Source: Escherichia coli (GTDB taxonomy: Bacteria; Pseudomonadota; Gammaproteobacteria; Enterobacterales; Enterobacteriaceae). From it: DNA of 64,000 bases. Both the position numbers and the translations under genes were made by a program. This document shows, piece after piece, positions 18,718 to 56,068 of this stretch. Numbering within the stretch: position 1 is the stretch's first letter; each line of letters begins with the position of its first letter. The notes beneath the pieces are model-generated. The model was not told where the DNA came from and ran no database searches. It saw only the letters and a list, made by a program, of their open reading frames with translations. The stretch lies in assembly GCF_003018255.1 (NCBI RefSeq), contig NZ_CP027440.1. One strand, given 5' to 3'.

Positions 18718-18923
18718 ACTTCCTGAGCCGGAACGAAAAGTTTTATCGGAATGCGTGTTCTGGTGAACTTTTGGCTTACGGTTGTGATGTTGTGTTGTTG
18801 TGTTTGCAATTGGTCTGCGATTCAGACCATGGTAGCAAAGCTACCTTTTTTCACTTCCTGTACATTTACCCTGTCTGTCCATAGTGATTAATGTAGCACC
18901 GCCTAATTGCGGTGCTTTTTTTT
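18718..18923 (+). ncRNA. gcvB: GcvB small RNA (Hfq-dependent)
   Basis: Divergent from gcvA. Sequence ACTTCCTGAGCCGGAACGAAAAGTTTTATCGG...GTTGTGATGTTGTGTTGTTGTGTTTGC (G/U-rich R1 region) ending in hairpin GCACCGCCTAATTGCGGTGC plus T8 (18916-18923). About 206 nt. Confidence 0.9.
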
Positions 18924-23246: not shown

Positions 23247-23323
<77 letters not shown>

Positions 23324-23356: not shown

Positions 23357-23433
<77 letters not shown>

Positions 23434-23466: not shown

Positions 23467-23529
<63 letters not shown>

Positions 23530-23543
<14 letters not shown>

Positions 23544-23570
23544 ATTTATTAGAATGCTGACAAACCGCAA
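23530..23570 (+). repeat. Direct repeat copy 1 (tRNA 3' end plus 27 bp flank); att-like
   Basis: ggcccccgcaaccaatttattagaatgctgacaaaccgcaa recurs identically at 50661-50701. Confidence 0.85.
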
Positions 23571-23596
23571 AGCTACTATTGGCTTGCGGTTTTTTC
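23563..23596 (+). terminator. Intrinsic terminator after the tRNA array
   Basis: Stem AACCGCAA (23563-23570) / TTGCGGTT (23584-23591) followed by a T-run (23592-23596). Confidence 0.55.
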
Positions 23597-24174
23597 GTTT
23601 TTACGCTTCCTTACCCGTTTCAGTGAAGCCTGAGACAATGAGTAAACCGTTAATATCCCTCCATCAAAGCCATCCATCTTATTTATATATTAAACATATA
23701 CCCCATTAATGAATTTTATATATTCTATAAATCAATTTATTTTGGTTATGTTAACATTTCAATATCACAACAGGGCGCTACGCTTATATAATCATTGTAC
23801 AAAAAGCACACAACTTTTTAATTAGTAGAAAAATTAATAATTTTTTGTGAAAGCCCGGACAATAAGTTTAATGAATATCTTAATAGGCTCTCATACTACC
23901 CAATTTCTTAAAAGTGCAAATTTGTGAAGCTTACCCTGTTATTATTTTAAGTTTCATGCCAAATTCTCTCACCAGATAATGCCACCCTCTCCCGAAAAAT
24001 AATCAAGAGGCCAAACAATATCTAAAATGATACAACTGTATCTATTCCCCTGAAAAATACATTATTCATTTGTATATTTTCCTCATCATTGCTTTTTATT
24101 TAAATCATCCGATAATCCCCTGAATATAATTATGTCAATAACCATCAGAAAAAGTGGATGATGAGGAAAAGGAT
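23597..24174 (+). promoter_or_regulatory. AT-rich upstream region of the tssB-led T6SS operon (promoter candidate)
   Basis: About 580 bp of strongly AT-rich non-coding DNA immediately upstream of tssB. Individual sites were not mapped. Confidence 0.45.
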
Positions 24175-24675
24175 ATGGCCGACAGTTTCCAGAATGAAGT
24201 TCCCGCCGCTCGTGTAAATATCAAGCTTGATCTGCATACAGGCAATGCTAAAAAGAAAGTTGAACTCCCCCTCAAGCTTCTTGCCGTAGGCGATTACAGT
24301 AACGGAAAAGAGCAACGTCCGCTGTCCGAACGGGACAAGGTTGATATCAATAAAAACAACTTCAACAGCGTCATGGCTGAGTTTTCGCCTGCGGTTAATT
24401 TAACAGTAGAAGATACGCTAAACGGAAACGGTAATGAACAAAATATCGCGCTTGAATTTAAAAGCCTGAAGGATTTTGAACCCGAACAGGTAGCAAAAAA
24501 TATTCCGCAACTTCGTGTATTACTCGCTATGCGCAATTTACTACGTGACCTGAAATCCAATCTGCTGGATAACGCAACGTTTCGCCGTGAACTGGAAAAT
24601 ATCCTGAAAGACCCGACGCTCAGTTCAGAACTGCGTGATGAACTGGCGAAAATTGCGCCGCAGGAGAACGTTTAA
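24175..24675 (+). CDS. tssB: T6SS contractile sheath small subunit TssB (VipA)
   Basis: MADSFQNEVPAARVNIKLDLHTGNAKKKVELPLKLLAVGDYS...; typical TssB N-terminus and size. Start at ATG 24175 with GAGGAAAAGG upstream; the track begins at GTG 24154. Confidence 0.9.
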   Translation: MADSFQNEVPAARVNIKLDLHTGNAKKKVELPLKLLAVGDYSNGKEQRPLSERDKVDINKNNFNSVMAEFSPAVNLTVEDTLNGNGNEQNIALEFKSLKDFEPEQVAKNIPQLRVLLAMRNLLRDLKSNLLDNATFRRELENILKDPTLSSELRDELAKIAPQENV

Positions 24676-24727
24676 CCCGAACGCGTATTCAGGTTAAACC
24701 GGAGAAGAAAGGATCCCTAAAAAGGAA

Positions 24728-26272
24728 ATGCTGATGTCTGTACAACAAGAATATGCCACCTCTGAAACTGCAACACTCACCACCACTGAGTCCGGCGGCG
24801 TTTATCAGTCCCTGTTTGATAAAATTAATTTAACCCCGGTCTCTTCCATTCAGGAAATCGATTTATGGCAAAACAGCGAAACGCTGGCCGATGCTTCACC
24901 CGATGAGCGCGTGACGGCGGCGATCCACGTTCTGCTTTCCTGTCTGGCGAAATCAGGCGAGGACGTGGTTAAACTCGACAAGAGCCTGCTGGATTTTCAT
25001 ATCGACGATTTGGATCAGAAAATCAGTAAACAGCTTGATGCAGTCATGCACCATCCGGAATTCCAGAAAGTCGAGTCGCTCTGGCGCGGCACATGGTTCG
25101 TCGTACAGCGCACCGATTTTCGCAAAAATGTCAAAATTGAACTGCTGGATATCAGTAAAGAACATCTGCGGCAGGACTTTGATGATTCTCCGGAAATCAT
25201 TCAAAGTGGTTTATATCGCCATACATACATTCAGGAATATGATACGCCGGGTGGCGAACCTGTAGCCTCATTAATATCCAGCTATGAATTCGATAACAGC
25301 CCGCAGGATATTGCCCTGCTGCGTAATATTTCCAGAGTCTCTGCTGCATCACATATGCCCTTTATCGGTTCCGTCGGACCGAAGTTCTTCCTTAAAAACT
25401 CGATGGAAGAAGTCGCCGCAATTAAAGATATCGGCAACTATTTTGACCGCGCGGAATATATCAAATGGAAGTCGTTCCGCGATACCGACGACAGCCGCTA
25501 CGTGGGATTAGTGATGCCGCGCGTGCTGGGCCGTCTGCCCTATGGCCCGGACACGGTGCCGGTACGCAGCTTTAACTATGTGGAAGAGGTCAAAGGCCCG
25601 GATCACGAAAAGTACCTCTGGACAAACGCCTCGTTTGCCTTTGCCGCCAATATGGTGAAGAGTTTTGTGAATAATGGCTGGTGTGTGCAGATCCGTGGTC
25701 CGCAGGCGGGTGGCGCAGTAGCCGATCTGCCGATCCATCTTTACGATCTCGGCACCGGCAATCAGGTCAAAATTCCGTCCGAAGTGATGATCCCGGAAAC
25801 CCGCGAGTTTGAGTTCGCCAACCTTGGCTTTATCCCGCTCTCTTATTATAAGAATCGCGATTACGCCTGCTTCTTCTCAGCGAACTCTGCCCAGAAACCG
25901 GCGCTGTATGATACCGCTGACGCCACCGCCAACAGCCGTATCAACGCCCGTTTGCCCTATATCTTCCTGCTGTCCCGCATTGCTCACTACCTGAAAATCA
26001 TTCAGCGCGAGAATATCGGCACCACCAAAGACAGACGCGTGCTGGAACTGGAGCTGAACACCTGGATCCGCACGCTGGTGACGGAAATGACCGATCCGGG
26101 CGATGAACTTCAGGCTTCGCATCCACTGCGCGACGGGAAAGTTATCGTCGAGGACATAGAGGACAATCCGGGCTTTTTCCGCGTCAGACTCTTTGCCGTG
26201 CCGCATTTCCAGATCGAAGGGATGGACGTCAACCTTTCTCTGGTTTCCCAGATGCCAAAAGCAAAAGCCTGA
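24728..26272 (+). CDS. tssC: T6SS contractile sheath large subunit TssC (VipB)
   Basis: 514-aa ORF immediately downstream of tssB; size and position typical of TssC. True start may be the third codon (ATG 24734). Confidence 0.9.
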   Translation: MLMSVQQEYATSETATLTTTESGGVYQSLFDKINLTPVSSIQEIDLWQNSETLADASPDERVTAAIHVLLSCLAKSGEDVVKLDKSLLDFHIDDLDQKISKQLDAVMHHPEFQKVESLWRGTWFVVQRTDFRKNVKIELLDISKEHLRQDFDDSPEIIQSGLYRHTYIQEYDTPGGEPVASLISSYEFDNSPQDIALLRNISRVSAASHMPFIGSVGPKFFLKNSMEEVAAIKDIGNYFDRAEYIKWKSFRDTDDSRYVGLVMPRVLGRLPYGPDTVPVRSFNYVEEVKGPDHEKYLWTNASFAFAANMVKSFVNNGWCVQIRGPQAGGAVADLPIHLYDLGTGNQVKIPSEVMIPETREFEFANLGFIPLSYYKNRDYACFFSANSAQKPALYDTADATANSRINARLPYIFLLSRIAHYLKIIQRENIGTTKDRRVLELELNTWIRTLVTEMTDPGDELQASHPLRDGKVIVEDIEDNPGFFRVRLFAVPHFQIEGMDVNLSLVSQMPKAKA

Positions 26273-26291
26273 TCGGGCGGTGGTGTGATGT

Positions 26292-36601: not shown

Positions 36602-36980
36602 TTTCTTTTTTTGTTCAAATAGTTACTCCGAAGAAAAAATAGAGATAATAAACATTAATAAACCAATATATATAGGTACCAATCAATCAGATAAGGTGCT
36701 TATTACTGCGTGTAATCATTGGGTGCTTAATTCTAGAGATATTATAGACATATTCAATCTAAGTATAAAGCATGATGATTATGGCGAAATAAACAGAATG
36801 TATTATTGGTTACCTTGTGAAATTAGAGGGAGACTAATGTATGACGGAATAGAATGGAGTTTTGTTATCAATGCTGCTGCAACAGCAATGTGGATGAGCA
36901 ATGATAAAGAGATTTACTGGGGATGCAATAAAAAAGCATGCGATAATTTCTTTTTATTACCATATGATGGGATGAGGTAA
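36543..36980 (+). CDS. Candidate cognate immunity protein (periplasmic, signal peptide)
   Basis: Overlaps the 3' end of the amidase gene. N-terminus MIKLVIKQKVKALISIVLINFFFCSNSYS looks like a Sec signal peptide; Cys-rich; AT-rich. Start among ATG 36531/36537/36543 is uncertain. Confidence 0.5.
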   Translation: MIKLVIKQKVKALISIVLINFFFCSNSYSEEKIEIININKPIYIGTNQSDKVLITACNHWVLNSRDIIDIFNLSIKHDDYGEINRMYYWLPCEIRGRLMYDGIEWSFVINAAATAMWMSNDKEIYWGCNKKACDNFFLLPYDGMR

Positions 36981-37085
36981 ATCACAGTTAATAAAGCAAA
37001 AACATTATGGACAAGTGAATTAATCAGATAGTTCAAGCACCTTGAGATTCATTGTATTCATATTTCAGAATAACGGATTATTACA

Positions 37086-38300
37086 ATGCCCATCCGACTT
37101 AATACCATTCCCGACGCAGAACCCTATCCCGCACCGCCAGCCCGCATTAAATGGCTGTCAGCCTTATTACTGATGCTGTCTGTTGGTGTGGCAATAACCT
37201 CATTATTCGCCAGCGATGAACTGGCAAAAAACGGCCCATATTTCTGGGGGCTGGCCTGCGGCGTGCCTGCTTTTATCTGGTCACTGGTCGGTTCGGTGCG
37301 CTGGCTGGTATTTGTCACTCAACATATTCGTGCCGATGCCTGGAATCAACGTCGCGAAGAAGTCATTTTGCAGGAAACACGGCGGGGACGACGGGCGTTG
37401 CAGATACTCAGTTTTTCCGTACAAACCGCGCTGAATGGTGATTCCGTCGCAGAAACTACAACAGCATTTCTGGCGCGTCATCAGGTGTTGAATACTTACG
37501 CTGATTTGCGCGGAGAAGATACCGTGCGTCGCAGTGTCATTCCCGTATTAACCAATAAACCGGTTACCGGGCGTTTATCCGAAATTATTTCCCGCCTTTT
37601 TATTGATATCAGACCGCAATTGTTTCTGCTGCCCCCTGATTTTCATATCAACGTACTACTGGAAATTGATGCGCCGCTTTCAGGGGCCTCCGTGAGAACT
37701 ATCTGGCAGGACGAATGGCAAAAAGCCGGACTCCCCGAAGCCCGTCTGTTTTCTGCCCCGGAGCCGGGGCTGGCCGCCGTGGACGACTGGCTGGACAACT
37801 TTATTCAGGAAAAGGCCGTACTGCTGGTGATTTCCGTGCGTCTGGAACCGAAGAACCCGGAACGGACGGCAGAATCCGCCACCGCGCTGTTGCTGGCAAA
37901 CCGACTGACGCAAACCGCGCTGACGCCGCTGGCCCTGCTGCATCGTCCTGAACGTATCACAGATACGGAGATGATGGCGTCAGGCATTGCACAGGCGCTG
38001 GACTGGATGCCGGTGCAGCCAGATGCCATATCCGGCATGTGGACAGTCGAACTGAACAGGGAACAGCGCGCCTCGCTGCTGTCATCTAACCAGCCGTTTA
38101 CTCAGGAAGCCCTGATGTACGAGCTGGATGCCTTTCTGGGGTGCTCCGGACCGGCAGCGCCGTGGCTGTCCGTCGCTGCGGCAACGCTGGCGGCAATACA
38201 ATCACAACACCCCCAACTGACGCTCAGCGGCGTTCAGAACGGGCATTATTCATGGGCGACCATGGTGTCGCCATTCGTTTCCCCTCAGGAGGCATCATAG
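37086..38300 (+). CDS. Uncharacterised T6SS-cluster inner-membrane protein (two N-terminal TM helices plus cytoplasmic domain)
   Basis: 404 aa, GC-rich like the core genes. TM segments WLSALLLMLSVGVAITSLF and FWGLACGVPAFIWSLVGSVRWLVFV. Stop TAG overlaps the tssM GTG start. Confidence 0.6.
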   Translation: MPIRLNTIPDAEPYPAPPARIKWLSALLLMLSVGVAITSLFASDELAKNGPYFWGLACGVPAFIWSLVGSVRWLVFVTQHIRADAWNQRREEVILQETRRGRRALQILSFSVQTALNGDSVAETTTAFLARHQVLNTYADLRGEDTVRRSVIPVLTNKPVTGRLSEIISRLFIDIRPQLFLLPPDFHINVLLEIDAPLSGASVRTIWQDEWQKAGLPEARLFSAPEPGLAAVDDWLDNFIQEKAVLLVISVRLEPKNPERTAESATALLLANRLTQTALTPLALLHRPERITDTEMMASGIAQALDWMPVQPDAISGMWTVELNREQRASLLSSNQPFTQEALMYELDAFLGCSGPAAPWLSVAAATLAAIQSQHPQLTLSGVQNGHYSWATMVSPFVSPQEAS

Positions 38301-41300
38301 TGGTTCCGGGATTAAACCGTCTCCGGCCCCGTTCGGTTTCAGGGCCTGCCATCGTCATGACCGTGGCCGTTGTGGTTGCGCTTTGCACGTTTATTCACCG
38401 TAAACCGGCATTGCTGGGCGTTGAACCGGGTAGTTCACAGCAAATGTACTGGATGGCTGGCGTGATTGCCGCAGGTGTGGTCTTTCTGATTATCATGGGG
38501 GTTTATCATCTGCTGAACCGCCACGCTGCCGTACAGAGCTTTGAACTCCACAGACAGCTTGCCGCCGGAGATGACTATCGGGCGGTGACGACAAAGAAAG
38601 CCGACAGCCGTCATCCGGCAATGGTGGAACTCGCCGCCTTCCTGCGCGACCGCTACGGCCCATTCTGGCGGCGTAAAATCCGCCTGCTGCTGGTGACCGG
38701 CGAGCCTGAACAGGCAGAGGCCATCGCGCCGGGGCTGACCGGGCAACACTGGCTGGAGGGCGACCACACGGTGCTGATATATGGCGGCAGGCCATCTACA
38801 GAGCCTGATGTCGCGCTACTGACCGCCTTAAAAAAACTGCGCCGCAGCCGTCCGCTGGACGGCATCATCTGGCCGCTGACAGAAGAACAGAGCCGCCAGA
38901 CGGCGCAACTCGACAAAGGCTGGCGCGAACTGATAAACGGCGGTAAGCGACTCGGTTTTCAGGCTCCACTCTATTTGTGGCAGGTCTGTGACAACGGTGA
39001 TTATCAGACCGGACGCCCCCTGCAAAGCGTCGGCTGCCTGCTGTCGGAACGCTGTACCCCGGAACAACTGGCTGCAATGCTGGAAGCACAAACCCTGCCG
39101 CTGACGGAACAGGGCATGTCGCAGCTGCTTACCGATAACCGCCATGATTTCCTGCTGCGTCTGGCCCATACCCTTGCAGAGCGGGGTATCGCTCACTGGC
39201 AAAGTATCCTGAAACCGCTGCTGGCAGGCGGCGCATTTTCCTCCCTGCGCCTGCGTGGCCTGATGTTCAGCCCGCCGCTTACCGCCGTACCGGAAGCCGC
39301 ACCTCATGCGTGGCTGCCGTCACCGGTCTGGGCGGGCGTGACCGGCGATAACGCGCGGGGTCGCACGGTGGGCTTTCCGTGGCTGCGTATCACGCTGATG
39401 TCTGCTGTCTGCGTACTGGCGATATGGGGGGCCGGAATGACGACCTCGTTCTTCGCCAACCGCGCACTTGTTCAGGAAACCAGCATCCAGACGGCGCGTG
39501 CACTCGATATCCGTCTGCCGCTGTCTGAACAACTGGTGGCGCTGCATACCCTGCAGGGTGAACTGGAGCGCCTGCAGTACCGTATCCGGGAGGGTGCGCC
39601 GTGGTATCAGCGTTTTGGCCTTGAACGTAACCAGCAACTGCTCGCCGCCGCCTTTCCCGGCTATGCGCAGGCGGCAAACCGGCTGGTGCGCGACGTGGCC
39701 GTTGACCATCTGCAACAGCAACTGAATGCCTTTGTCGCGCTGCCGCCCAATAGTCCGCAGCGTACCGCCACCGGCGAACAGCGCTATAAGCAGCTTAAGG
39801 CATTGCTGATGACTTCCCGCCCGGAAAAGGCCGACGCTGCCTTTTTCAGTACCACGCTGATGGCAGATGACCTGCGCTATGCAGGTGTACCGGAAGGTGT
39901 GCGTCAGAGCGTGTTGCCGTCACTGCTGACCTTCTGGATGGCGAATCTGCCGGAACACCCACAGTGGAAAACTTCGCCGCCACCGGAACTGACCGGCGCA
40001 GTGCGCAAAATCCTGCTGCGCCAGATTGGTGTGCGCAATGCCGAAAACACTCTCTACCAGAACGTACTGCAACAGGTGTCCCGCAACTACGCCGATATGA
40101 CGCTGGCGGACATGACCGGGGATACGCTCACCGAATCTCTTTTCAGTACGGAGCAGACGGTGCCGGGGATGTTTACCCGTCAGGCGTGGGAAGGACAGGT
40201 CAGGGAAGCCATCGAGCAGGTGGTGACGGCGCGGCGCGAGGAAATCGACTGGGTACTCAGCGACCGCCAGCAGGATACCTCTGCGGATATCTCGCCGGAT
40301 ATGCTGCGTAACCGTCTCACTTCACGCTACTTTACCGACTTTGCCGGAAGCTGGCTGGCGTTTCTCAACAGCATTCGCTGGAAAAAGGAAGACTCGCTCT
40401 CCGGCATTCTCGACCAGTTGACGCTGATGGCCGATGCCCGCCAGTCACCGCTGATTGCGCTGACAGACACCCTCGCGTGGCAGGCGGCGGCTGGCAGGGA
40501 AAACCGTGGCCTGTCAGACTCGCTGGCGAAATCGGCACAGGAACTGTTTAACGGCAAGGAGAAAACGCCGCAGCAATCCCGTGAAGGCGACGTGCCTGTC
40601 GGGCCGCTGGATAAAACCTTCGCGCCGCTGCTGCGGTTGCTTGGCGATAAGGCAGGAGGCGGCGACAGCCAGCTGAGCCTGCAGACCTACCTCACCCGAG
40701 TCACCCGCGTGCGCCTCAAACTGCAACAGGTGACCAACGCCCCTGACCCGCAGGAGATGACCCAGCAACTGGCGCAGACGGTCTTACAAGGCAAAACCGT
40801 TGACCTTACCGACACCCGCGACTATGGCAGCCTGATAGCCGCCAGTCTGGGTGAAGAGTGGAGTGGCTTCGGTCAGGCGCTGTTCGTCCGCCCGGTGGAG
40901 CAGTCATGGCGGCAGGTGCTGACGCCTGCGGCAGACAGCCTGAACCGCCAGTGGCAGCGGGCGATTGTCAGCCACTGGGATCAGGACTTCGCTGGTCGCT
41001 ACCCGTTCAAAGCCTCACAAAACGATGCCTCCCTCCCCCTGCTGGCGCAGTACCTGCGCGATGACGGGCGCATCAACCAGTTTATCGCCGCCAATCTTTC
41101 CGGCGTACTGAAACGTGAAGGCCGCTACTGGGTGGCTGACGCCATGAACACGCAGGGGCTGACAGTCAATCCGGACTTTATTCGCGCCCTGAACCGCCTG
41201 CGCGATGTGGCCGATACCGCCTTTGCCAGCGGCGATGCAGGGATACATTTTGAACTGCGGGCAAAACCGGCGCGCGACGTGATGAAGACGCATCTGGTGA

Positions 41301-41683: not shown

Positions 41684-43286
41684 ACTGTTGCAAAAGCTGA
41701 CCCGTAGCTGTTTTGCCGACCGGGACGCACTGGACTCGGCGCGAACACAGGCGGCGCTGTGGCAGACATGGCTGCTGCCGGTGACGGCAGATACGCCGGT
41801 CGGGGAAGACCCCGGCTACCACGACGATTTCCTGCGTATCCGCGACGAGATGAACAAACTTTCCGGCGCGGATACGGACCTTATCTGCCAGCTTGCCGAA
41901 TCCCTGCTGCTGACGCAGGCAAAAGACGTGCGCATCGCCACTTACTATATCTGGGCGCGACTGCACCGCGATGGCGAACGCGGACTGGCTGAGGGGCTGG
42001 CGCTGTTAGCCGGACTGGTGGAACGCTTCGGTGCGCAACTGCTGCCCTCGCGCCCGGCAAGCCGAAAAATGGCGCTGGAGTGGCTGGCAGGGGAAAAGAT
42101 GCTCGACAGCCTTGCCCGCTACCCGGAAGTGGCAAAAGAGGATTTTGCGAACATTGTTGCCGCTCTTAATCAACTGACGGTTTCCTTCACTGCATGGCCC
42201 GAAGACCAGCATTCCCCCTCCCTGATGCCGCTGATTAACGCGCTGGAATCACGTCTGGCGCAGTCGGGTGGGATGAACGCGGTGGTGCCGCAGAACAGCA
42301 GCGGCGTTCCGGCACCGTCTTCCCCGGTGGATGCGCCACAGGTACAGACCATCACTTCCGGGCGCGACCTGCTCGACCAGGCGAAAGTGCTGGCCCGTTA
42401 TCTGAACGAACAGCCGCAGGGCTGGCTTTCAGCACACCGGCTGATGAAAACCCTGCGCTGGGACACGGTGCATGAACTGCCGCCGGATGTGGACGGAAAA
42501 ACCCGGCTGGCCCCGCCGCGCACAGAATCACGCAACCAGCTTAAGCGGCTGTATGCTCAGCAGAACTGGACGGAACTGCTGGAGCAGGCCGACCTGATGT
42601 TCAGCACCGGCGTCAGCCATTTCTGGCTGGACATTCAGTGGTATCTGCATCAGGCGCTGACTAAGGCGGGCGCACCGTGGGACAGGTGGACAGCGGTTAT
42701 CCGTCAGGACCTGGCGTTACTACTGGAACGCCTGCCGGGGCTGGAAAATCTGGCATGGAACGACGGCACGCCGTTCGCCGATGAGTTGACGCGCAACTGG
42801 ATAGCGCAGCAGGTCATGATGCGGGAAGACGGCGCATGGCTTGCGGGGAAAGCCGCTGTACCGACAGACGACGCCACAAACGACGTACTGGCGCTGGAGC
42901 CGGAAGCGCTGGAGATGGCAGACAGTCAGGGCGTGGAAGCGGCGCTGGGCTGGATACAGACCCGTCCGGGCATCACCACGGCACGCCAGCGCCTGTTATT
43001 GCGACTGCTGATGGCGCGGGTGGCGGAACAGTACGGTAAAAACGAGATGGCGCTCCTGCTGCTGGAAGAACTGGATATCGCCGCACAGGGGCTGACGCTG
43101 ACGCAGTGGGAGCCGGACCTGCTGTTTGAGGTAAAAGCCCGACAGCTGAAACAGCTGCGCCTGCGGGCGCACCGCTATGCGGATAAAGCCCTGCTGAACC
43201 GAAAAATGGAAATCCTGCTGGGAACGCTGGTGACAATAGATCCGGTACGGGCAGCGGTATTGTGTGATACGCAACATAAGGACTGA
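41676..43286 (+). CDS. tssA: T6SS protein TssA (ImpA N-terminal domain)
   Basis: MSELLQKLTRSCFADRDALDSARTQAALWQTWLLPVTADTPVGEDPGYHDDFLRIRDEM... (ImpA_N signature). ATG 41676 overlaps the tssM stop (ATGAGTGA). Confidence 0.8.
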   Translation: MSELLQKLTRSCFADRDALDSARTQAALWQTWLLPVTADTPVGEDPGYHDDFLRIRDEMNKLSGADTDLICQLAESLLLTQAKDVRIATYYIWARLHRDGERGLAEGLALLAGLVERFGAQLLPSRPASRKMALEWLAGEKMLDSLARYPEVAKEDFANIVAALNQLTVSFTAWPEDQHSPSLMPLINALESRLAQSGGMNAVVPQNSSGVPAPSSPVDAPQVQTITSGRDLLDQAKVLARYLNEQPQGWLSAHRLMKTLRWDTVHELPPDVDGKTRLAPPRTESRNQLKRLYAQQNWTELLEQADLMFSTGVSHFWLDIQWYLHQALTKAGAPWDRWTAVIRQDLALLLERLPGLENLAWNDGTPFADELTRNWIAQQVMMREDGAWLAGKAAVPTDDATNDVLALEPEALEMADSQGVEAALGWIQTRPGITTARQRLLLRLLMARVAEQYGKNEMALLLLEELDIAAQGLTLTQWEPDLLFEVKARQLKQLRLRAHRYADKALLNRKMEILLGTLVTIDPVRAAVLCDTQHKD

Positions 43287-44698
43287 TGGCAATGGGAACA
43301 GGCTACTTTCTGGTCAGGGGGGACAAAACCACCTGCGGCGGCAAAATTATTGAAGGCGCGGACGACCATACGATCATGGGTATCCCGCAGGCGCGGGATA
43401 TGGACCGGGTCACCTGCGGCAGATATCCGGGAATGTTTATTATTGTGGGCGGCGTTCCTGAAACAGATATTCACGGCAGGCTGATGGCGGGGACGCTGGA
43501 CAGTCAGAGCAGTTGCCCGTGTAAGGCACGGTTTATTGCGTCAATGATGGATGATACGTATGAGACGGATGACGGGGAAAGTGAAGCGGAACAACATGCG
43601 CAGTCGGCGAAAAAGGATCTGACTTCTGGTTCTGATTCATCCTCTGATGATGTAAAACTGGATTACAGAATTAAATTATCAGGTAATAAGATACTGACGC
43701 CACTGAATATACCTGATTATAAAGAAATGATTAGCGGTGGTAGTACGAAGAATACAGAAAAAATAGATTTTACCATCACAAATAAAGGCGATGAGGCTGA
43801 AGCGCTTTCTCTGGAAGTGCTTGATGGTAATGAAGTGATTTATAGTGAACGGCAGACCGGTAAATATTGTGATAAGGGAGAGCATGCCTGGCAATGGGAT
43901 GGCTACAGTAATCAAGGCATACTGGATACAACTAAGATAAAAAGCAAATCACTACTCGTAAGACTGATTGCTTTATGTGGTGATATGATGATAAAAGTTG
44001 ATTATCCATTGAAAAATGCTGCGAAAGAAGAAGAGTGGGTTGATGTAAAAGTTGACAGAAATAATAAAGTGGTCGATATAACATGGAGATTATCTGTTAA
44101 GGATAGCGGTACAAAAGGCAGTAACCCTGAGTTATCGCCAATACCTTATAGCGATTTAGTTAGTCTTACTAAAAATGGCGTGGAGTTTTACTGGTCACGA
44201 AATGGAAGTCGCGGCGGGGGAATTGGTGGTAATATCGTTACAGCGATTGGGGTTTTTAAAGTAAATGTAAAGGCTGAGATAAATATTACTCCATCTATGC
44301 GAACTTTTGATTTGATATCATCGTTAGATCCAGATATGCAGTCGTCGGTAAGTCTTTTGGGGTTTGAAAAAATATACCATAACTATGGTGGCTATTATAA
44401 TAACAGCAAGGATGAAATAAAGGCTCTTCTATATAGTAATGAAAGATATAAATGGGATAGTGCTCATGAGATGGGACATAAAGTTATGGATAAATATGGT
44501 TCTGAATCATGGACACATAAGGGGACATCCACGCGGGGTCAAAGTACCATCCCTAATACTCCAATGCCATCTTCAGGAGAGATTGATATAATGAAATATG
44601 CAGATAGCTATGCACCTGATAGATATAAGAGATTGGTCGCGGCAGATGAAGATGTTCAGGCATTGATCTGGTTGAGCAGGGTGAGTTTTAATGATTAG
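43286..44698 (+). CDS. PAAR-domain protein with C-terminal HExxH (zincin-like) putative toxin domain; candidate specialised T6SS effector
   Basis: N-terminal about 85 aa is PAAR-like (GDKTTCGG...GIPQARDMDRVTCG...SSCPCKA) and GC-rich. The remainder is AT-rich and contains SAHEMGHKV. Start overlaps the tssA stop (TGATG). Confidence 0.7.
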   Translation: MAMGTGYFLVRGDKTTCGGKIIEGADDHTIMGIPQARDMDRVTCGRYPGMFIIVGGVPETDIHGRLMAGTLDSQSSCPCKARFIASMMDDTYETDDGESEAEQHAQSAKKDLTSGSDSSSDDVKLDYRIKLSGNKILTPLNIPDYKEMISGGSTKNTEKIDFTITNKGDEAEALSLEVLDGNEVIYSERQTGKYCDKGEHAWQWDGYSNQGILDTTKIKSKSLLVRLIALCGDMMIKVDYPLKNAAKEEEWVDVKVDRNNKVVDITWRLSVKDSGTKGSNPELSPIPYSDLVSLTKNGVEFYWSRNGSRGGGIGGNIVTAIGVFKVNVKAEINITPSMRTFDLISSLDPDMQSSVSLLGFEKIYHNYGGYYNNSKDEIKALLYSNERYKWDSAHEMGHKVMDKYGSESWTHKGTSTRGQSTIPNTPMPSSGEIDIMKYADSYAPDRYKRLVAADEDVQALIWLSRVSFND

Positions 44699-44713
44699 AA
44701 TAATTGTTTTTTA

Positions 44714-45115
44714 TTGTTTTTTTTGAGTGGGTGTACTTCACAAAAAGAGTATTCCAATATAGTCAGGATTGAGAATAGATGCTCCTCAGATATCGATGTC
44801 TTTATTCAGGGATATGTTTCCGGTTCTACGCTGATTTATCAGCATAATATACACTTGCCAGTTGGTGATAGTGATGTATTAGTATATTTTTCCACGGCAG
44901 ATATTGATGATGGTTTTAAATATGAGGGGGCATTCATGATATATAAAGATAGCCGCGGTGAATTGGATTATCCATTCACCATTTCATTGTCAGGGCGCGA
45001 AAAAAAATTTGGGAAGAATGACTTAATTAGATTATCACGAGATATTTCAACAAAAGACGACAGAAAATACGGAGTTATAAGATATATAATCGACAGTCAG
45101 GAAATTTGCCCGTGA
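44714..45115 (+). CDS. Candidate immunity lipoprotein for the PAAR-HExxH protein (5' end disrupted or phase-variable at a T8 tract)
   Basis: Track ORF starts at TTG 44714 (FFLSGCTSQ..., lipobox LSGC without a signal peptide). ATG 44691 in another frame encodes MIRIIVFYCFF then stops; one extra T in the T8 run (44717-44724) would fuse it into a canonical lipoprotein signal peptide. Confidence 0.5.
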   Translation: MFFLSGCTSQKEYSNIVRIENRCSSDIDVFIQGYVSGSTLIYQHNIHLPVGDSDVLVYFSTADIDDGFKYEGAFMIYKDSRGELDYPFTISLSGREKKFGKNDLIRLSRDISTKDDRKYGVIRYIIDSQEICP

Positions 45116-45324
45116 TGTTTTAAGTTATTCGTTCACAATTATTAATTATTGCCTATTATGTAAGGTAAATTTAATTTGGTTCAGAAAAGACAAGAATACA
45201 TCATTATTAAAATCAATAAGTCAGCAACTATCCATAATATATTCACATAGAATAAATTTAACTATGATGTTACTTCTACACCTGCATGATATTCACTTTC
45301 AATGAAAGGAAGATAATCCCTCCG

Positions 45325-47085
45325 ATGGACGATCTAACCCAACGCTACTACGAAGCCGAAATGCGCTACCTGCGTGAAGCGGGGAAAGAATTTGCGCAGG
45401 CTTACCCCGACCGCGCCGCGATGCTCAATCTTGATAAACCCGGCGCACGCGATCCCTATGTGGAGCGCCTGTTCGAAGGCTTCGCTTTTTTAATGGGTCG
45501 CCTGCGTGAAAAGCTGGATGACGACCTGCCCGAACTGACCGAGGGGCTGGTCAGCCTGCTGTGGCCTCACTACCTGCGAACCATCCCGTCACTTTCCGTG
45601 GTTGAACTGTCGACAGATCACCGGCAGATGAAGCAGAGCGAAACACTGAGTAATTTTCAGGTATTGTCGCGTCCTGTTGGCGAGCGCAGAACCCGCTGTG
45701 TCTACAGTGCTACGCGGGATATCACGCTGCATCCGCTGGCGCTGCCGGACGTGTCATTGCAATATGAACCGGACGGGCGCTCGGTTATCCGTCTGCGCTT
45801 TGAATGCGGCCCGCTGGTTGGTGACTGGTCACAGATCGATCTATCCCGTTTGCCGCTCTATCTCAATGCCGACAGCCCGGTGGCCTGTGCGCTGCACCGG
45901 GCTTTAACGCTTGGCACCCAGCAGTTCTGGCTGCGTCTGCCGGGGCAGGAACGCCGTGTGCTGGACGCGCACTTTTCCCCGATGGGTTTTGATGACAATG
46001 ACCGACTGTGGCCAAAAGGCGAGTCGGCGTTCAGCGGCTACCAGTTGCTGCTGGAGTATTTCACCTTCCGCGAAAAGTTTATGTTTGTGGCGCTGAACGG
46101 GCTGGAGAACGTCATCTGGCCGGAAGGGATGAGCGGCTTTGAGATTGACGTGGTGCTGAGCGAGAACTGGCCTCACGACCTGCCGTTTGACAGCGATAAT
46201 ATCCGTCTGCACTGCGTGCCGGTCATCAACCTGTTCCCGCTGGAAGCCGATCCGTTACACCTTTCGCCACTGGAAAACGAATTTCTGCTGCGCCCGATGC
46301 GTATTCAGGACGGGCATACCGAGATTTATTCCGTCGACAACATTATTTCTTCGCGCCATACCGGCAGTCAGGCGTATGTCCCGTTTTCCAGCTTTCGTCA
46401 CCGGGGCGGGATGCTGCGCCACGATGCACCGGAACGCTATTACCATACGCGGGTTAAGCGCGGCCCTTCCGGCCTGCATGATACCTGGCTGATTCTGGGC
46501 GGCGATGCGTTTGATTCCGACCGGATGCTGGAGGATGAAACGCTCTCTTTAAGCCTGACCGGCACTAACGGACAGCTTCCCCGTAAGGCTTTACAGAGCA
46601 CGCTGCTTGATACGCCAGTTCATGCCTCACAGAACGTCCTGCGGGTGCGCAACCTGTGCGCCCCGACGCAGCCCTGTTATCCCCCGGCGCGTGACCGCTT
46701 CCACTGGCGGGTGCTCAGCCACCTCGGTTCTAACTTTCTTTCAATGATGGATAACGCCGAAATTCTGCGCGGCACGCTGGCGCTGTACGACTGGACCGAA
46801 AGCGAGATGAACCGCCGCCGTCTGTCGGCGATTGTCGACGTTCAGCACAGCCTGATACAGCGTTTTGAAAGAGGCTTTCTGCTGCGTGGCGTGGATATTC
46901 AGGTGACGCTGGACAGCACCGGCTTTGCCGGAGAGGGTGATATCACGCTGTTTGGCGAACTGCTGCACCGCTTCTTTGCACTGTATGCCGATATCCACTT
47001 ATTCACTCAACTGACCTTAATTCTGCAACCCACAGGAAAGTGCCTGCAATGGACAGAGCATCACAGCCAGCGCGTACCGGGCTGA
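45325..47085 (+). CDS. tssF: T6SS baseplate protein TssF
   Basis: MDDLTQRYYEAEMRYLREAGKEFAQAYPDRAAMLNL... (typical TssF N-terminus), 586 aa from ATG 45325 with AAGGAAG upstream; the track begins at 45286. Confidence 0.88.
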   Translation: MDDLTQRYYEAEMRYLREAGKEFAQAYPDRAAMLNLDKPGARDPYVERLFEGFAFLMGRLREKLDDDLPELTEGLVSLLWPHYLRTIPSLSVVELSTDHRQMKQSETLSNFQVLSRPVGERRTRCVYSATRDITLHPLALPDVSLQYEPDGRSVIRLRFECGPLVGDWSQIDLSRLPLYLNADSPVACALHRALTLGTQQFWLRLPGQERRVLDAHFSPMGFDDNDRLWPKGESAFSGYQLLLEYFTFREKFMFVALNGLENVIWPEGMSGFEIDVVLSENWPHDLPFDSDNIRLHCVPVINLFPLEADPLHLSPLENEFLLRPMRIQDGHTEIYSVDNIISSRHTGSQAYVPFSSFRHRGGMLRHDAPERYYHTRVKRGPSGLHDTWLILGGDAFDSDRMLEDETLSLSLTGTNGQLPRKALQSTLLDTPVHASQNVLRVRNLCAPTQPCYPPARDRFHWRVLSHLGSNFLSMMDNAEILRGTLALYDWTESEMNRRRLSAIVDVQHSLIQRFERGFLLRGVDIQVTLDSTGFAGEGDITLFGELLHRFFALYADIHLFTQLTLILQPTGKCLQWTEHHSQRVPG

Positions 47086-48128
47086 CCGACCGGCTGGCCC
47101 CGGATATTGCGCGGATCAATTTTTACCGTTTTTGCCAGTTGCTGGAACAGAGCCCGCAGAACGCGCCGCTGGGCAGTACCGACAGCCCCGCCACCGATGC
47201 GGTGCGCTTTCGTCCTCATCCAGGTATGGGCTTTCCGGTCAGCGAGTTAAAAAACGTTGAACGTGACGTGGGCAATCCCGACGCGCCCCCCACGGTGCGC
47301 ACCACTTTTCTCGGCCTGTACGGCGTGGATTCGCCGCTGCCAACCGCCTATCTGGACTACATTACCCAGCGTCATGACGGACATGACGCAGTGATGGCGT
47401 TTCTCGATATTTTTAACCATCGCTTTATTACTCAGTACTACCGCATCTGGCGCAAATATAACTACCCGGCGTCGTTTGAAGCAGGTGCCGTGGATGACAT
47501 TTCCCGTTGTCTGCTGGGACTCATCGGGCTGGGTATTCCCGGCAGCGAGAACCATATCGCCACGCCGGTATCCCGTTTTCTGGCCCTGCTCAGCGTGATG
47601 CGCCTGCCGACGCGCACGGCGGAAGGCGTTACGGCACTGGTGGGACTGCTTGCCCCGCTGACGAAAGCGACGGTGGTGCCTCATGATCCGCAGCCTGTAA
47701 TTCTCCCGGCCCCTGCGGGTCTGTCAAAAAATTCACGCATCAGCCTGAAAACGCGAACGCTGCTGGGGCGTACCGGTACCGACGTCAACAGCCAGTTGCT
47801 GCTGAAACTGTATACCGAAGATGCCGCAGAAGCGCGTGGCTGGCTGCCCGGCGGGCAACTGCACAGCGATTTGCTGGTGCTGCTGCGCGTTTATCTGGGC
47901 TGGCGCTGTCAGGCCCGTCTGCAACTGACGCTGCCCGTCAGCCTGTTGCCTGCTGCCCGGCTGGGAAAACAGCGTGTACAGATTAGCCGTACCGGCATCC
48001 TTCGCGCCTCCTTTGCCGCGCCCGCGACCGGAACAGTGACGGTCAGTCTGGGGCGTTATCAGGGATTAATACCCGCTTTTTCCATTCGTAACAGGGAGAG
48101 TATGACTCATGTTTCCTATTCGTTTTAA
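47040..48128 (+). CDS. tssG: T6SS baseplate protein TssG
   Basis: 362-aa ORF overlapping the tssF 3' end, with INFYRFCQLLEQ near the N-terminus; start may be ATG 47049. Confidence 0.8.
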   Translation: MPAMDRASQPARTGLTDRLAPDIARINFYRFCQLLEQSPQNAPLGSTDSPATDAVRFRPHPGMGFPVSELKNVERDVGNPDAPPTVRTTFLGLYGVDSPLPTAYLDYITQRHDGHDAVMAFLDIFNHRFITQYYRIWRKYNYPASFEAGAVDDISRCLLGLIGLGIPGSENHIATPVSRFLALLSVMRLPTRTAEGVTALVGLLAPLTKATVVPHDPQPVILPAPAGLSKNSRISLKTRTLLGRTGTDVNSQLLLKLYTEDAAEARGWLPGGQLHSDLLVLLRVYLGWRCQARLQLTLPVSLLPAARLGKQRVQISRTGILRASFAAPATGTVTVSLGRYQGLIPAFSIRNRESMTHVSYSF

Positions 48129-48645
48129 ACGTCCGGCGTTGCTCTGTATGGCGATGCTGACGGTTGTTCTGAGTGGCTGCGGGCTGATTCAGAAAGTGGT
48201 GGATGAATCGAAAAGCGTGGCCTCAGCCGTTTTCTACAAACAAATCAAAATACTGCATCTCGATTTCTTCTCCCGCAGCGCCCTGAATACGGATGCGGAA
48301 GATACGCCGCTTTCCACGATGGTGCATGTCTGGCAACTGAAAACCCGCGAAGATTTTGATAAGGCGGATTATGACACCCTGTTTATGCAGGAAGAGAAGA
48401 CGCTGGAGAAGGACGTACTGGCAAAACACACCGTCTGGGTAAAACCTGAAGGCACGGCATCCCTGAATGTGCCGCTGGATAAAGAGACGCAGTTTGTCGC
48501 CATTATTGGGCAGTTTTATCACCCGGATGAAAAAAGCGACAGCTGGCGTCTGGTGATCAAAAGGGACGAACTGGAGGCCGACAAGCCGCGCTCGATTGAA
48601 CTGATGAGAAGCGACCTGCGACTGCTGCCTCTCAAGGATAAATAA
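48109..48645 (+). CDS. tssJ: T6SS outer-membrane lipoprotein TssJ
   Basis: 178 aa with signal peptide and lipobox (MLTVVLSGCG); size and position typical of TssJ/SciN. Confidence 0.85.
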   Translation: MFPIRFKRPALLCMAMLTVVLSGCGLIQKVVDESKSVASAVFYKQIKILHLDFFSRSALNTDAEDTPLSTMVHVWQLKTREDFDKADYDTLFMQEEKTLEKDVLAKHTVWVKPEGTASLNVPLDKETQFVAIIGQFYHPDEKSDSWRLVIKRDELEADKPRSIELMRSDLRLLPLKDK

Positions 48646-48648
48646 CCG

Positions 48649-49077
48649 ATGGCGACACCTTCCTTATATGAAATGCTGACGTTCAGTTTCAGCGGCGAGT
48701 TACCGCTGGAACAGGTCAGTGAGCGGGATCAGCTTATCCTTTCCGTGATGGACAATATGCAACGCATTATCAACTGTCGGGCAGGCACACTGGCGCATTT
48801 GCCGGATTACGGTCTGCCGGATCTCAGCCTGATCCATCAGGGGATGGCTGCGGGTATTCATAGCCTGATGCGCCAGATTGAAGAAACGCTGCTGCGTTAT
48901 GAACCACGCCTGAATCAGATACAGGTGGAGTTACTGCCCCAGCCCGGTCCGGGGCATCTTAATTACCTGATCCACGCGCAGCTTCCCGATACCGGCTGGA
49001 TACGCTTTGATGGCGTATTTTCTCCGGAAGGACGAATTGTTCTGCGTCATCTCAAACAACAGGAGCGGGCGTACTGA
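48649..49077 (+). CDS. tssE: T6SS baseplate protein TssE (gp25-like)
   Basis: 142-aa ORF between tssJ and the tagA-like gene; size and context fit TssE. Confidence 0.75.
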   Translation: MATPSLYEMLTFSFSGELPLEQVSERDQLILSVMDNMQRIINCRAGTLAHLPDYGLPDLSLIHQGMAAGIHSLMRQIEETLLRYEPRLNQIQVELLPQPGPGHLNYLIHAQLPDTGWIRFDGVFSPEGRIVLRHLKQQERAY

Positions 49078-50453
49078 TGGCAAGTAACGCGAATTTTATC
49101 AGCCAGTTCGTCATGGGCGGCGATCCCTGTACTTATAAGGAATCCGGTGAACTGCAGGCTGAAATGAGTAAACTGACTCACCCGGCCCGACCGGATGTGG
49201 ACTGGCGTCAGGTGGAAAAACTCTGCCTCGCGCTGTTCCGGCAAAATGGCGTGGAACTACAGACGCTGGTCTGTTACGTGCTGGCAATAACCAGACGGCA
49301 GGGGCTGGCAGGGATGGCAGACGGACTCGGTTCACTGGATATACTGCTCCAGCGCTGGGCTGACTTCTGGCCGGTACAGGTACATTCCAGAATATCACTG
49401 CTCAGCTGGGTCACAGAAAAAATGCAGCAGGCACTGAGAACGCTGGATATTCAGTATCAGGATCTGCCGCAGATCTACCGTTGTGTACAGCATCTTTCCG
49501 CCATCGAAACCACGCTGCAACAGTGTGAACTGTGGCATATGACGAAGCTGGACGTATTGTCCGGGCAGTTTCGCAATGCGGCTCTGCGTCTGGAACGGCT
49601 GGCGCCTCAGGGAGCGGAAACCATTATCACTCCCCCTGAATTACCCCGCCGGGAAATGAATCAACCGAAAAAGTCAGAGGAAAGTCCACAGCCGGTTTTT
49701 GCAACCAGATCCGTTCAGCAAAACGATAAGGATGCCAGTCCACCCGTGCCATCCCCTGAAATCTCCCGGCAGCGGACATGGCCGATATTTATGGCCGGAA
49801 TGGTTGTGATGGCCGGTCTCGGCGGAACAGGATTATGGGGCTGGTCGCAGCTTAATCAGCCGGACGCGCTAATCCAGCGAATACAACTGTCTGTCATGCC
49901 GTTGCCGCAGTCGCTGGAGAGCGGCGAACTGGCAAAGCTGGATGTAAAGGATAAGGCGCTGCTGGCTCAGGACAGAACAATTGCGGCAAGTCAGATGCAA
50001 CTGGAGCAGTTAAACAAATTGCCTGCCCGCTGGCCACTGGAGCAGGGATATCGCCAGCTACGCCAGCTTGATGCCCTGTGGCCGGATAATCCTCAGGTCA
50101 GGGCGCTGAACGCGCAGTGGCGCAAACAGCGGGAGCTGAGCGCCCTGTCTGCTGAGGCACTGAATGGCTATGCTCAGGCGCAGAGCCAGCTACAGCGCCT
50201 GTCGGCGCAGCTGGATGCACTGGATGAACGTAAGGGGAGATATCTGACCGGTTCGGAACTAAAAACGGCGGTGTACGGCATCCGGCAGTCGTTAAAGGAG
50301 CCGCCGCTGGAAGAACTGCTTCGGCAACTGGAAGAGCAAAAACAGACCGGAGAGGTTTCGCCAACGCTGTTGACGCAAATTGATACCCGGTTAAATCAGT
50401 TGTTGAATCGCTATGTCATTTTACTGGATACGAAGGTGGAACAAAGTCAGTAA
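49077..50453 (+). CDS. tagA: TagA-like TssA-family accessory protein (ImpA_N-like domain, internal hydrophobic segment, C-terminal coiled coil)
   Basis: 458 aa; N-terminal region resembles ImpA_N (DPCTYKESGELQAEMSKL...DVDWRQVEKLCLALFRQNGVELQTLVCYVLA); hydrophobic segment WPIFMAGMVVMAGLGGTGLWGW; Q/L-rich C-terminus. ATG overlaps the tssE stop. Confidence 0.6.
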   Translation: MASNANFISQFVMGGDPCTYKESGELQAEMSKLTHPARPDVDWRQVEKLCLALFRQNGVELQTLVCYVLAITRRQGLAGMADGLGSLDILLQRWADFWPVQVHSRISLLSWVTEKMQQALRTLDIQYQDLPQIYRCVQHLSAIETTLQQCELWHMTKLDVLSGQFRNAALRLERLAPQGAETIITPPELPRREMNQPKKSEESPQPVFATRSVQQNDKDASPPVPSPEISRQRTWPIFMAGMVVMAGLGGTGLWGWSQLNQPDALIQRIQLSVMPLPQSLESGELAKLDVKDKALLAQDRTIAASQMQLEQLNKLPARWPLEQGYRQLRQLDALWPDNPQVRALNAQWRKQRELSALSAEALNGYAQAQSQLQRLSAQLDALDERKGRYLTGSELKTAVYGIRQSLKEPPLEELLRQLEEQKQTGEVSPTLLTQIDTRLNQLLNRYVILLDTKVEQSQ

Positions 50454-50660
50454 ACATCGGGGGATTTATGTACCAATAAGGGATATGTGACCTTGCCATT
50501 TTTTAAAATGGAGTCTCTGTGTACAAAAAAGAGAGGAACAGGCCATTCGATCTACTCGTTGATTCACATCAGATAATGAGTGTATATTTCGGTAGATAGC
50601 TTGGGTTCGGGAACAGTGAATACCTTAAGTTTCAAAAGATTGGATTAACCTCTTGACTGT

Positions 50661-50701
50661 GGCCCCCGCAACCAATTTATTAGAATGCTGACAAACCGCA
50701 A
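50661..50701 (+). repeat. Direct repeat copy 2 (duplicate of tRNA-fMet 3' end plus 27 bp); att-like module boundary
   Basis: Identical to 23530-23570, with no tRNA body upstream. Confidence 0.85.
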
Positions 50702-50727
50702 TGTGTTCTACAAATTGCGGTTTTTTT
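50693..50727 (+). terminator. Intrinsic terminator-like hairpin at the second repeat
   Basis: Stem AACCGCAAT / ATTGCGGTT followed by T7 (50721-50727); same stem as at 23563-23591 but with a different loop. Confidence 0.5.
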
Positions 50728-51710: not shown

Positions 51711-51771
51711 TCACATCAATGAACGCCACCCCAAAAGATGGCGTGACCGGTTACTGTTTTATATTCTAAAA

Positions 51772-52368: not shown

Positions 52369-52370
52369 TT

Positions 52371-55126: not shown

Positions 55127-55157
55127 GTGGGTTATCTCATATAAATGTTATATATAA

Positions 55158-55982: not shown

Positions 55983-55993
55983 TCCATGACTCC

Positions 55994-56068
55994 AAAAAAA
56001 AAGGCAAGGCACGTCAGAAGTAATAATTACTTCAAACATTGCCTTGCCTGATTTAACAGTTACAAGAT
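55994..56068 (-). promoter_or_regulatory. RAT (ribonucleic antiterminator) overlapping an intrinsic terminator in the leader of the antiterminator/PTS operon
   Basis: Minus strand: TCTTGTAACTGTTAAATCAGGCAAGGCA (close to sacB/bgl RAT consensus), whose 3' half GGCAAGGCA pairs with TGCCTTGCC (inner stem GAAGTA/TACTTC), followed by T9 and the start codon. Confidence 0.75.

Follow-up and report, generated by a model that had tools for sequence, protein, structure and literature searches.

The metV-amiC type VI secretion island of Escherichia coli as a probable degenerate derivative of a tRNA-targeting integrative island

Genomic islands inserted at tRNA genes and equipped with P4/CP4-57-like tyrosine integrases are well known, the asnT high-pathogenicity island and the pathogenicity islands (PAIs) of Escherichia coli 536 being examples, and the loss of the integrase or of the attachment (att) sites is a known fate by which an island becomes "fixed". 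The present analysis concerns a stretch of 64,000 nucleotides from E. coli (contig NZ_CP027440.1, assembly GCF_003018255.1), the whole of which is called the window, where a 27-kb block of type VI secretion system (T6SS) genes and a 5.5-kb phosphotransferase system (PTS) module follow the tRNA gene metV. The T6SS block, 27.1 kb long, is interpreted here as a degenerate tRNA-targeting integrative island that would have been added upstream of the PTS module by tandem accretion; the full account was given a probability of about 0.75.

The closest described system is PAI-CFT073-metV, credited to Lloyd et al. (2007/2009) in passages of papers that cite that work (PMC2660368, PMC6315130, PMC3573123). 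It comprises c3385-c3410, measures ~32 kb (a size also given in PMC3573123), and was listed with 25 coding sequences, 0 integrases and 0 transposases (PMC6315130). In E. coli W, the T6SS found downstream of metV was named ETSS2 (PMC3032704). The gene order of the window is gcvA-csdAE-tcdA-mltA-metZWV, the 27-kb T6SS, the 5.5-kb PTS module, and then amiC-argA-recD-recB, and its T6SS and PTS region is the published PAI-CFT073-metV (T6SS-2, also ETSS2). It was collinear with positions 3222000-3259000 of CFT073 at 94.5-97% DNA identity, with the same metV-amiC position, the T6SS followed by a c3405-10-type PTS operon, and the same 41-bp repeat. Strain JNE23-011 was closer still, being 99.27% identical and collinear over 35 kb. 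The cargo of the window at 35.0-38.6 kb and 43.3-45.3 kb has no counterpart in CFT073; otherwise, this is the same island in another strain. The main features are as follows.

23247-23323, 23357-23433 and 23467-23543, + strand: metZ, metW and metV, three tandem tRNA-fMet (CAT) genes, from ARAGORN, Rfam tRNA and the PGAP annotation of the 100%-identical junction in JNE23-011
24154-50453, + strand: T6SS-2 gene block, from open reading frames (ORFs) with names taken from the PGAP annotation of JNE23-011
50754-56039, - strand: PTS module, five genes equivalent to c3405-c3410, from ORFs and PGAP names, with a G+C content of ~40%
56240-57493, - strand: amiC, the first conserved gene on the right, at whose stop codon the island region ends

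The G+C content was mostly 58-62% in the T6SS, ~40% in the PTS operon and ~52% in the flanking core. The T6SS-2 block begins with tssB, tssC, tssK, tssL, an OmpA-family (TagL-like) gene, hcp, tssH/clpV and vgrG; continues with an amidase-type effector and its neighbours, a 404-aa T6SS protein, tssM, tssA, and a PAAR-toxin with a neighbour; and closes with tssF, tssG, tssJ, tssE and a VasL-domain protein. Hence, a full core set (TssA-TssM, Hcp, VgrG and PAAR) is present with effector/immunity cargo, all of it being intact in the JNE23-011 island according to PGAP; the set is also backed by the Pfam families of the orthologous genes. The two segments without a CFT073 counterpart (35045-38645 and 43287-45324) are of low G+C content (31% and 37.5%) and encode the amidase-type effector and the PAAR-toxin with small neighbouring ORFs. 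Effector/immunity cassettes of the metV T6SS are swapped between strains.

The island resembles the P4/CP4-57-type tRNA islands in its insertion at a tRNA 3' end, its tRNA 3'-end direct repeat, its atypical G+C content and its strain-variable presence, and an intact relative has a DUF4102/Arm-DNA-bind integrase beside the tRNA. It differs from them in that the integrase and most of the arm sites are missing in all of the E. coli copies examined, and in that its repeat is unusually long, because homology between the arm and terminator and a resident element is included. Salmonella pathogenicity island 20 (SPI-20) likewise carries a complete T6SS cluster beside a tRNA gene, and its T6SS belongs to a related phylogenetic group; nevertheless, it uses a different tRNA target and was reported without obvious direct repeats, whereas the window keeps both att junctions.

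The 41-mer GGCCCCCGCAACCAATTTATTAGAATGCTGACAAACCGCAA occurred at 23530-23570 and at 50661-50701, and the two copies were identical at 41/41 positions when aligned. The target of integration is the third tRNA-fMet gene, metV, which is complete at 23467-23543 and directly followed by the island; the first 14 nt of the left copy (23530-23543) are its 3' end. At the right copy (~50.6 kb), no tRNA body was found by ARAGORN. Each copy runs into a hairpin with the common lower stem AAACCGCAA/TTGCGGTTT, a differing 13-nt upper part that is self-complementary in both cases, and a T-run after it.

23530-23570, + strand: left repeat copy (attL side), 14 nt of the metV 3' end and 27 nt of flank
23562-23595, + strand: island-borne type II terminator hairpin and T-run ending the tRNA operon, from folding, with a homologue at attL of the integrase-bearing Entomohabitans and Salmonella islands
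50661-50701, + strand: right repeat copy (attR side), tRNA 3'-end core and then 27 nt
50693-50727, + strand: resident terminator hairpin and T-run, from folding and from loop comparison across genomes

The hairpins were assessed by folding and gave terminator-like structures (left, dG -15.8 kcal/mol and z -3.3; right, dG -14.0 kcal/mol and z -3.5); a terminator pattern scan called neither, their loops exceeding its 3-8 nt limit. Similarity resumed past the divergent 13 nt (TTGCGGTTTTTT.GT.TTTA, 18/20 matches, at the same 27,131-bp spacing), so that the duplicated segment is really ~74 bp long with a divergent middle. In the comparison of loops across genomes, the right-copy loop TGTGTTCTACAAA was of the type seen in genomes with the PTS module only (TGTGTTCCACAAA, TGTGTTTCACAGA), and the left-copy loop AGCTACTATTGGC was specific to the island. 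Therefore, the right copy is the resident flank that preceded the insertion, and the left copy arrived with the island. One resident and one imported copy is the pattern predicted if attL is the tRNA plus P' and attR is P plus core plus B'.

No further copy of the 41-mer was found in the window at up to 3 mismatches, and two matches were obtained in 0/100 shuffles. Queries containing the repeat matched at most 2-3 places per E. coli genome, all of them at the metV locus, in the 5,426 complete genomes searched. Since the repeat never exceeded these 2-3 places, a dispersed element of the repetitive extragenic palindromic (REP) or bacterial interspersed mosaic element (BIME) kind was rejected. 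A transposon target-site duplication was also rejected, given the absence of a transposase and a repeat length that varies with context.

The extent of the att core was read from strains that have the T6SS island only (ECC-1470, EC7072022BGR and 02B17CRGN002). Their direct repeat is just 17 bp long (GGCCCCCGCAACCAATT), which places the att core at the tRNA 3' end. Their right junction runs through AACCTCTTGACTGT, GGCCCCCGCAACCA and ATTATTGAACACCCTAACGGGTG (with TGACTGT before the core), that is, the tRNA 3' end followed by exactly the K-12 post-metV sequence, and their left junction is the island's own flank and hairpin, ATTTATTAGAATATCAGAAACCGCAA-CGCTACCTTTAGC-TTGCGGTTTTTTCG. The T6SS block was found in three downstream contexts (K-12-type, PTS-type and the Entomohabitans flank), and its right end was always CTCTTGACTGT followed by GGCCCCCGCAACCA. 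On these comparisons, the putative att core is 14-17 bp long, and the other 27 of the 41 bp are homology between the left arm of the island, which carries its own terminator hairpin, and the resident PTS-side flank.

The distribution of the two modules was analyzed with junction-specific BLAST queries against the same 5,426 genomes, and four states of the locus were found.

Empty, 3,501 genomes: metV directly followed by the K-12 flank
T6SS-only, 250 genomes: T6SS right end, tRNA 3' end and K-12 flank
PTS-only, 597 genomes: metV and PTS flank
Both modules, 1,087 genomes: T6SS right end, repeat and PTS flank

The four counts add up to about the number of genomes searched, and the T6SS left junction was detected in 1,319 genomes, near the 1,087 plus 250 in which the right junction was seen. 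The breakpoints fell on the repeat in all four states, and the empty-site sequences were exactly the flank found past the core at attR. Furthermore, three PTS-only genomes (A20, A36 and an O170:H18 strain) matched the predicted excision product at 100% identity over 234 nt, and the enteropathogenic E. coli strain E2348/69, also PTS-only, was 99.1% identical to it. Such genomes may represent targets that were not occupied, or they may have arisen by deletion between the repeats.

The original prediction, which had been made from the sequence of the window, had described the 41-bp repeat, the second copy without a tRNA body and the shared stem with different loops, and all of this was confirmed. 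Its claim of site-specific insertion at the tRNA 3' end agrees with the constant right end in three contexts and with the P4-like integrase of the intact relative described below. Its claim that the two modules were acquired separately is borne out by the existence of all four states, by junctions lying exactly on the repeats, including those of the strains with one module, and by the difference in G+C content (~58-62% versus ~40%). The comparison of junctions that it had suggested identified the right copy as the pre-insertion metV flank, and a genome-wide REP-like nature, which it had considered, was not seen, the repeat being found at the metV locus only. The reading of all 41 bp as an insertion repeat has to be narrowed: the repeat is of the att type, but only 14-17 bp are core. 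Similarly, the repeat had been thought to split the island into two modules; the T6SS does end on repeats, but the PTS module is not bounded by them and has no attR.

The T6SS-only island lineage was ~93.5% identical to the island of the window, with flanks at 98-99%, and it keeps a MucR-family gene that is deleted in the lineage with both modules. The divergence of the islands and this difference fit at least two independent integrations, which would have taken place at one K-12-type site and one PTS-type site. Both T6SS-only E. coli and Entomohabitans retain a complete Ros/MucR-family gene of 182 aa at the right island end. A deletion of ~660 bp, which seems to have occurred at a TTCGA microhomology, is present in the window and in the other examined genomes with T6SS and PTS, and the following remnant is left; the MucR-like protein had no match in NCBIfam or PHROGs and matched only Pfam ROS_MUCR.

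50519-50550, + strand: 5' remnant of the Ros/MucR-family regulator gene (Pfam ROS_MUCR)

Many E. coli copies of the metV T6SS are decaying and are often inactivated. ISEc12 was seen at the right end in sequence type 131 (ST131) and inside tssM in GN04096, and other damage consisted of an IS1 truncation, ISEc1 in tssA, and a group II intron or insertion sequence (IS) past tssC. Several large internal deletions leave stubs from tssB to VasL. The tssF gene has a frameshift in CFT073 and is intact in JNE23-011, the closest relative of the window. The tRNA-fMet array also varies in size: E. coli CRE389 has five copies in tandem, some E. coli matches cover two, two are present in Entomohabitans and in one Salmonella strain, and another Salmonella locus has a single core copy. 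Strain H29 was considered as a carrier of an alternative island at metV and was rejected, since its locus is merely an expansion to five tRNA-fMet copies.

A search of genome contigs with the VasL-domain protein matched one locus, which belongs to Entomohabitans and ends just past the MucR gene, and the left end of this locus was reached by exact-protein look-ups stepping along the contig. Entomohabitans teleogrylli SCU-B244 (LLXO01000037.1 and Logan contigs) carries a T6SS island at the same tRNA together with an integrase. On the left, the order is mltA, two tRNA-fMet genes, a homologous hairpin, a 405-aa integrase, a 264-aa Integrase_1-family gene and tssB. On the right, VasL and MucR are followed by CTCTTGACTGT, GGCCCCCGCAACCA and ATCTCAGAG in succession, by two genus-specific genes and by amiC. 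The integrase is of the P4-like tyrosine type, and its domains are Arm-DNA-bind_3, Phage_int_M and Phage_integrase. At attR, the 14-nt core from the tRNA 3' end is found again, and no internal core copy was found between the integrase and the T6SS. The T6SS DNA was 97.0-97.7% identical to that of E. coli ECC-1470 and 94.3-96.2% identical to that of the window; mltA, amiC and argA were only 74-79% identical between Entomohabitans and E. coli, and the similarity of the islands stopped 2 bp past the 14-nt core. Since this near-identical island still carries one, the comparison shows that the ancestor of the T6SS island bore a P4-like tyrosine integrase adjoining the tRNA.

Relatives of this integrase (68-71% aa) were also found in Salmonella enterica at the same mltA-tRNA-fMet site, with the same hairpin, the same Integrase_1 gene and T6SS-type cargo (VgrG-Rhs). 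Additionally, the same arm and hairpin stand before a related integrase (71% aa) in a Logan contig; the preceding sequence, ending in TTCGAATTCCGTCCGTTCCGCCA, resembles the 3' end of a different tRNA, and no tRNA was called by ARAGORN at that point. This could be a member of the family that uses another target, or else a junction of the attR/attP type.

In both intact islands, the motif AATGAGTRNAY occurs between the hairpin and the integrase in two direct and one inverted copies, against an expectation of 0.09 per locus. The right arm has another copy, ~76 bp in from the island end, at a distance to the core that is conserved with Entomohabitans. The motif was defined after the sequences had been seen, and its copies are candidate arm-type integrase-binding sites. 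Two of them, and the spacer that adjoins the first, are found in the window.

23637-23647, + strand: AATGAGTAAAC, single surviving putative arm-type site of the left (P') arm, from a motif scan; intact relatives have three
23648-24153, no strand assigned: AT-rich 0.5-kb non-coding spacer, ORFs of up to 56 aa, G+C content 42%
50575-50585, + strand: AATGAGTGTAT, putative arm-type site of the P (right) arm, lying 76 bp ahead of the core, from a motif scan; same relative position in Entomohabitans

The spacer occupies the position of the ~4.5-kb integrase module of the Entomohabitans relative, showed no blastn or tblastn similarity to that module, and is probably the T6SS promoter region. There is no room for an integrase in the non-coding gaps of the window (left, 610 bp; right, 207 bp), whose ORFs do not exceed 56 aa. 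No integrase, transposase or IS was annotated by PGAP in the 99.3% identical JNE23-011 island, and tblastn with both Entomohabitans integrase-family proteins against the window, seven E. coli loci and one Atlantibacter locus gave a best E value of 0.37, with no match in the left gap. Likewise, no complete E. coli genome searched had an Entomohabitans-type integrase module at metV; exact look-up of TssB returned E. coli contexts only, none with an integrase and several with internal T6SS deletions; and a search of a phage collection with the right arm, core and flank found no phage with this attP. The island of the window thus has no integrase of its own next to an att site, as the original prediction had stated and as PMC6315130 had listed for PAI-CFT073-metV; the tblastn search for degraded fragments that the prediction had proposed supports this. 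The description of the island as "fixed" in the prediction holds for self-excision but not for the population, where gain and loss occur and PTS-only genomes match the predicted excision product. Because the integrase is absent here and present in the Entomohabitans relative, the copy in the window is a degenerate derivative and not an autonomous element.

These observations can be assembled into the following history. The ancestor of the island would have entered the chromosome by site-specific recombination, in which an attP bearing a copy of the tRNA-fMet 3' end, with the core GGCCCCCGCAACCA(ATT), recombined with the 3' end of metV. Integration would have rebuilt metV with the terminator hairpin of the island at attL and left a tRNA 3' end without a body at attR. 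In the case of the window, the target would already have held the PTS module, whose metV-adjoining flank (27 nt and hairpin) is homologous to the left arm of the island; the PTS module would lie in what is left of an earlier island of the same family, a remnant that had lost its integrase, attR and native terminator. The T6SS island would then have integrated later, upstream of the PTS operon, as a tandem accretion. The 41-bp repeat would consist of the 14-bp core and of 27 bp in which two left arms are homologous, a stretch that gene conversion may have homogenised. Later, the E. coli lineage would have lost the ~4.5-kb integrase module and two of the three left-arm repeats resembling binding sites, a deletion that would leave the island no longer able to excise by itself.

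The part of this history that concerns the PTS module depends on the type II hairpin. Unoccupied sites in K-12 and Salmonella have a common type I terminator, AACACCC..GGGTGTTTTTTT. The type II hairpin, AAACCGCA..TGCGGTTTTTT, stands at attL of the integrase-bearing Entomohabitans and Salmonella islands, which indicates that it travels with the island; it is also the hairpin immediately downstream of metV in PTS-type E. coli and Atlantibacter hermannii, and the PTS side has no type I terminator. A. hermannii has the PTS operon at the same amiC-metZWV locus in the same orientation, and its flank closely resembles the arm of the Salmonella island, including the loop GCCATCAACGGC (~90% identity in a rough end-gap-free alignment). 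The identity matrix of these short flanks is inflated by free end gaps, and only this Atlantibacter-Salmonella similarity, which is obvious by eye, was relied on. The Kluyvera amiC locus was dropped from the comparison as rearranged and uninformative. The five genes of the module encode a 2-hydroxyacid/phosphoglycerate dehydrogenase, a SIS isomerase, a MalY/PatB aminotransferase, a PTS EIIBC component and a PRD antiterminator. Once E. coli, Atlantibacter and Enterobacter are set aside, the EIIBC (53546-55126, - strand) has its nearest relatives in Firmicutes (Clostridioides difficile, for one, at 68% identity), which fits the 40% G+C content of the operon, and in another enterobacterial metagenome contig the operon lies at a different locus. 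The most economical reading is that the module probably sits in what is left of an older island of that family.

Several points weigh against the accretion account. The evidence for it is wholly comparative, with excision, the circular form and integrase activity resting on inference; the att core and the position of the crossover were inferred from identity blocks; and the arm-site motif is a post hoc one. The 27-nt segments were identical to each other (ATTTATTAGAATGCTGACAAACCGCAA) in 5/5 of the genomes with both modules that were examined, unlike the other states: the T6SS-only left arm has ATCAGAAACCGCAA (atcagaa), and PTS-only sites of other lineages have ATACTT... or ACACTT... with GCTGATAA (gctgataa). 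This is not what a simple reciprocal crossover within the core would give; the pattern looks like one of gene conversion or of integration into an already identical target, and one of the two would be needed. The PTS module shows no flanking repeat, attR, integrase or arm sites, and no degenerate core copy was found near amiC. Finally, the PTS proteins of E. coli and Atlantibacter (68-86% aa identity) diverge about as much as the neighbouring core proteins (84-92%), which leaves room for an old vertical residence of a chromosomal type II terminator.

The last two points are what an alternative of native origin builds on. According to it, the type II hairpin and the 27-nt flank are native to an old PTS-type metV-amiC locus inherited with Atlantibacter, the island copied them into its attP, the PTS module was never in an island, and the 41-bp repeat is an attP/attB identity block. 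The occurrence of the module at the same locus and orientation in A. hermannii, the protein divergence compatible with long co-residence, and the lack of any integrase, attR or arm site on the PTS side are all in its favour. Nevertheless, it was judged unlikely, although worth serious attention, since the unoccupied Salmonella and K-12 sites share a different terminator and the occupied Salmonella site has the type II hairpin beside its integrase. The G+C content of ~40%, the Firmicutes relatives of the EIIBC and the different locus in another contig also indicate a horizontal origin of the operon.

Homologous recombination is a weaker competitor and was considered improbable as a general explanation. 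It supposes that the repeat of 41-74 bp was made or maintained by a Campbell-type RecA crossover or by gene conversion, and that the PTS-only state arose by RecA-mediated deletion. The identical, chimeric-looking 27-nt segments in the 5/5 genomes with both modules and the exact match of PTS-only genomes to the predicted deletion product over 234 nt speak for it. However, it leaves unexplained why the T6SS-only and Entomohabitans junctions share just 14-17 bp, and why the intact relative has a dedicated integrase and clusters of arm sites; its role would be limited to a secondary one, on the extended repeat. That the repeat is a chance match or a REP-like intergenic element, uninformative on insertion, is a negligible prospect, with nothing for it beyond an intergenic position and hairpin content, and with the shuffles, the confinement of all matches to metV and the coincidence of the junctions of every presence/absence state with the repeat against it.

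The accretion account can be extended further, at somewhat less than even odds. The E. coli T6SS-2 might be the stripped form of a still-circulating element of ~34 kb that targets the tRNA-fMet 3' end specifically through a P4-like integrase, bears a whole T6SS as its cargo, recently moved between genera and entered E. coli at least twice, at K-12-type and PTS-type sites. The metV-amiC interval would then be a stack of islands of the same family. Recent transfer between genera is suggested by the 2-3% difference between the Entomohabitans and E. coli copies, versus more than 20% for the flanking core genes. The copy in the window keeps both att cores and one arm site per side, and copies without an integrase might still be mobilised if one were provided in trans.

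Some further features of the window lie outside the island. The small RNAs (sRNAs) CsrB (180-539, - strand) and GcvB (18718-18923, + strand) are both full length according to Rfam and are ordinary core features with no bearing on the repeat. In the argA-recD spacer (59024-59259), a unit of ~80 nt is repeated in tandem, the two copies lying ~155 bp from each other and matching at 89% identity over 55 nt and at 96% over 23 nt; the spacer measures ~238 bp in the window and in JNE23-011 versus ~62 bp in K-12.

PAI-metV/T6SS-2 is a well-known island of uropathogenic and avian-pathogenic E. coli, and its missing integrase is already in the literature; the mechanism is a textbook one, and the repeat is the expected att scar. 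What is added here is a count of the four locus states across 5,426 complete genomes and a true att core of 14-17 bp. Furthermore, a near-identical relative in another genus that still bears an integrase explains an "immobile" T6SS cluster at a tRNA gene, and the neighbouring PTS operon probably stands on an older scar of the same island family. The general view of such islands is unchanged; these results are of use for annotating islands at metV and for tracing the gain and loss of T6SS-2 in E. coli.

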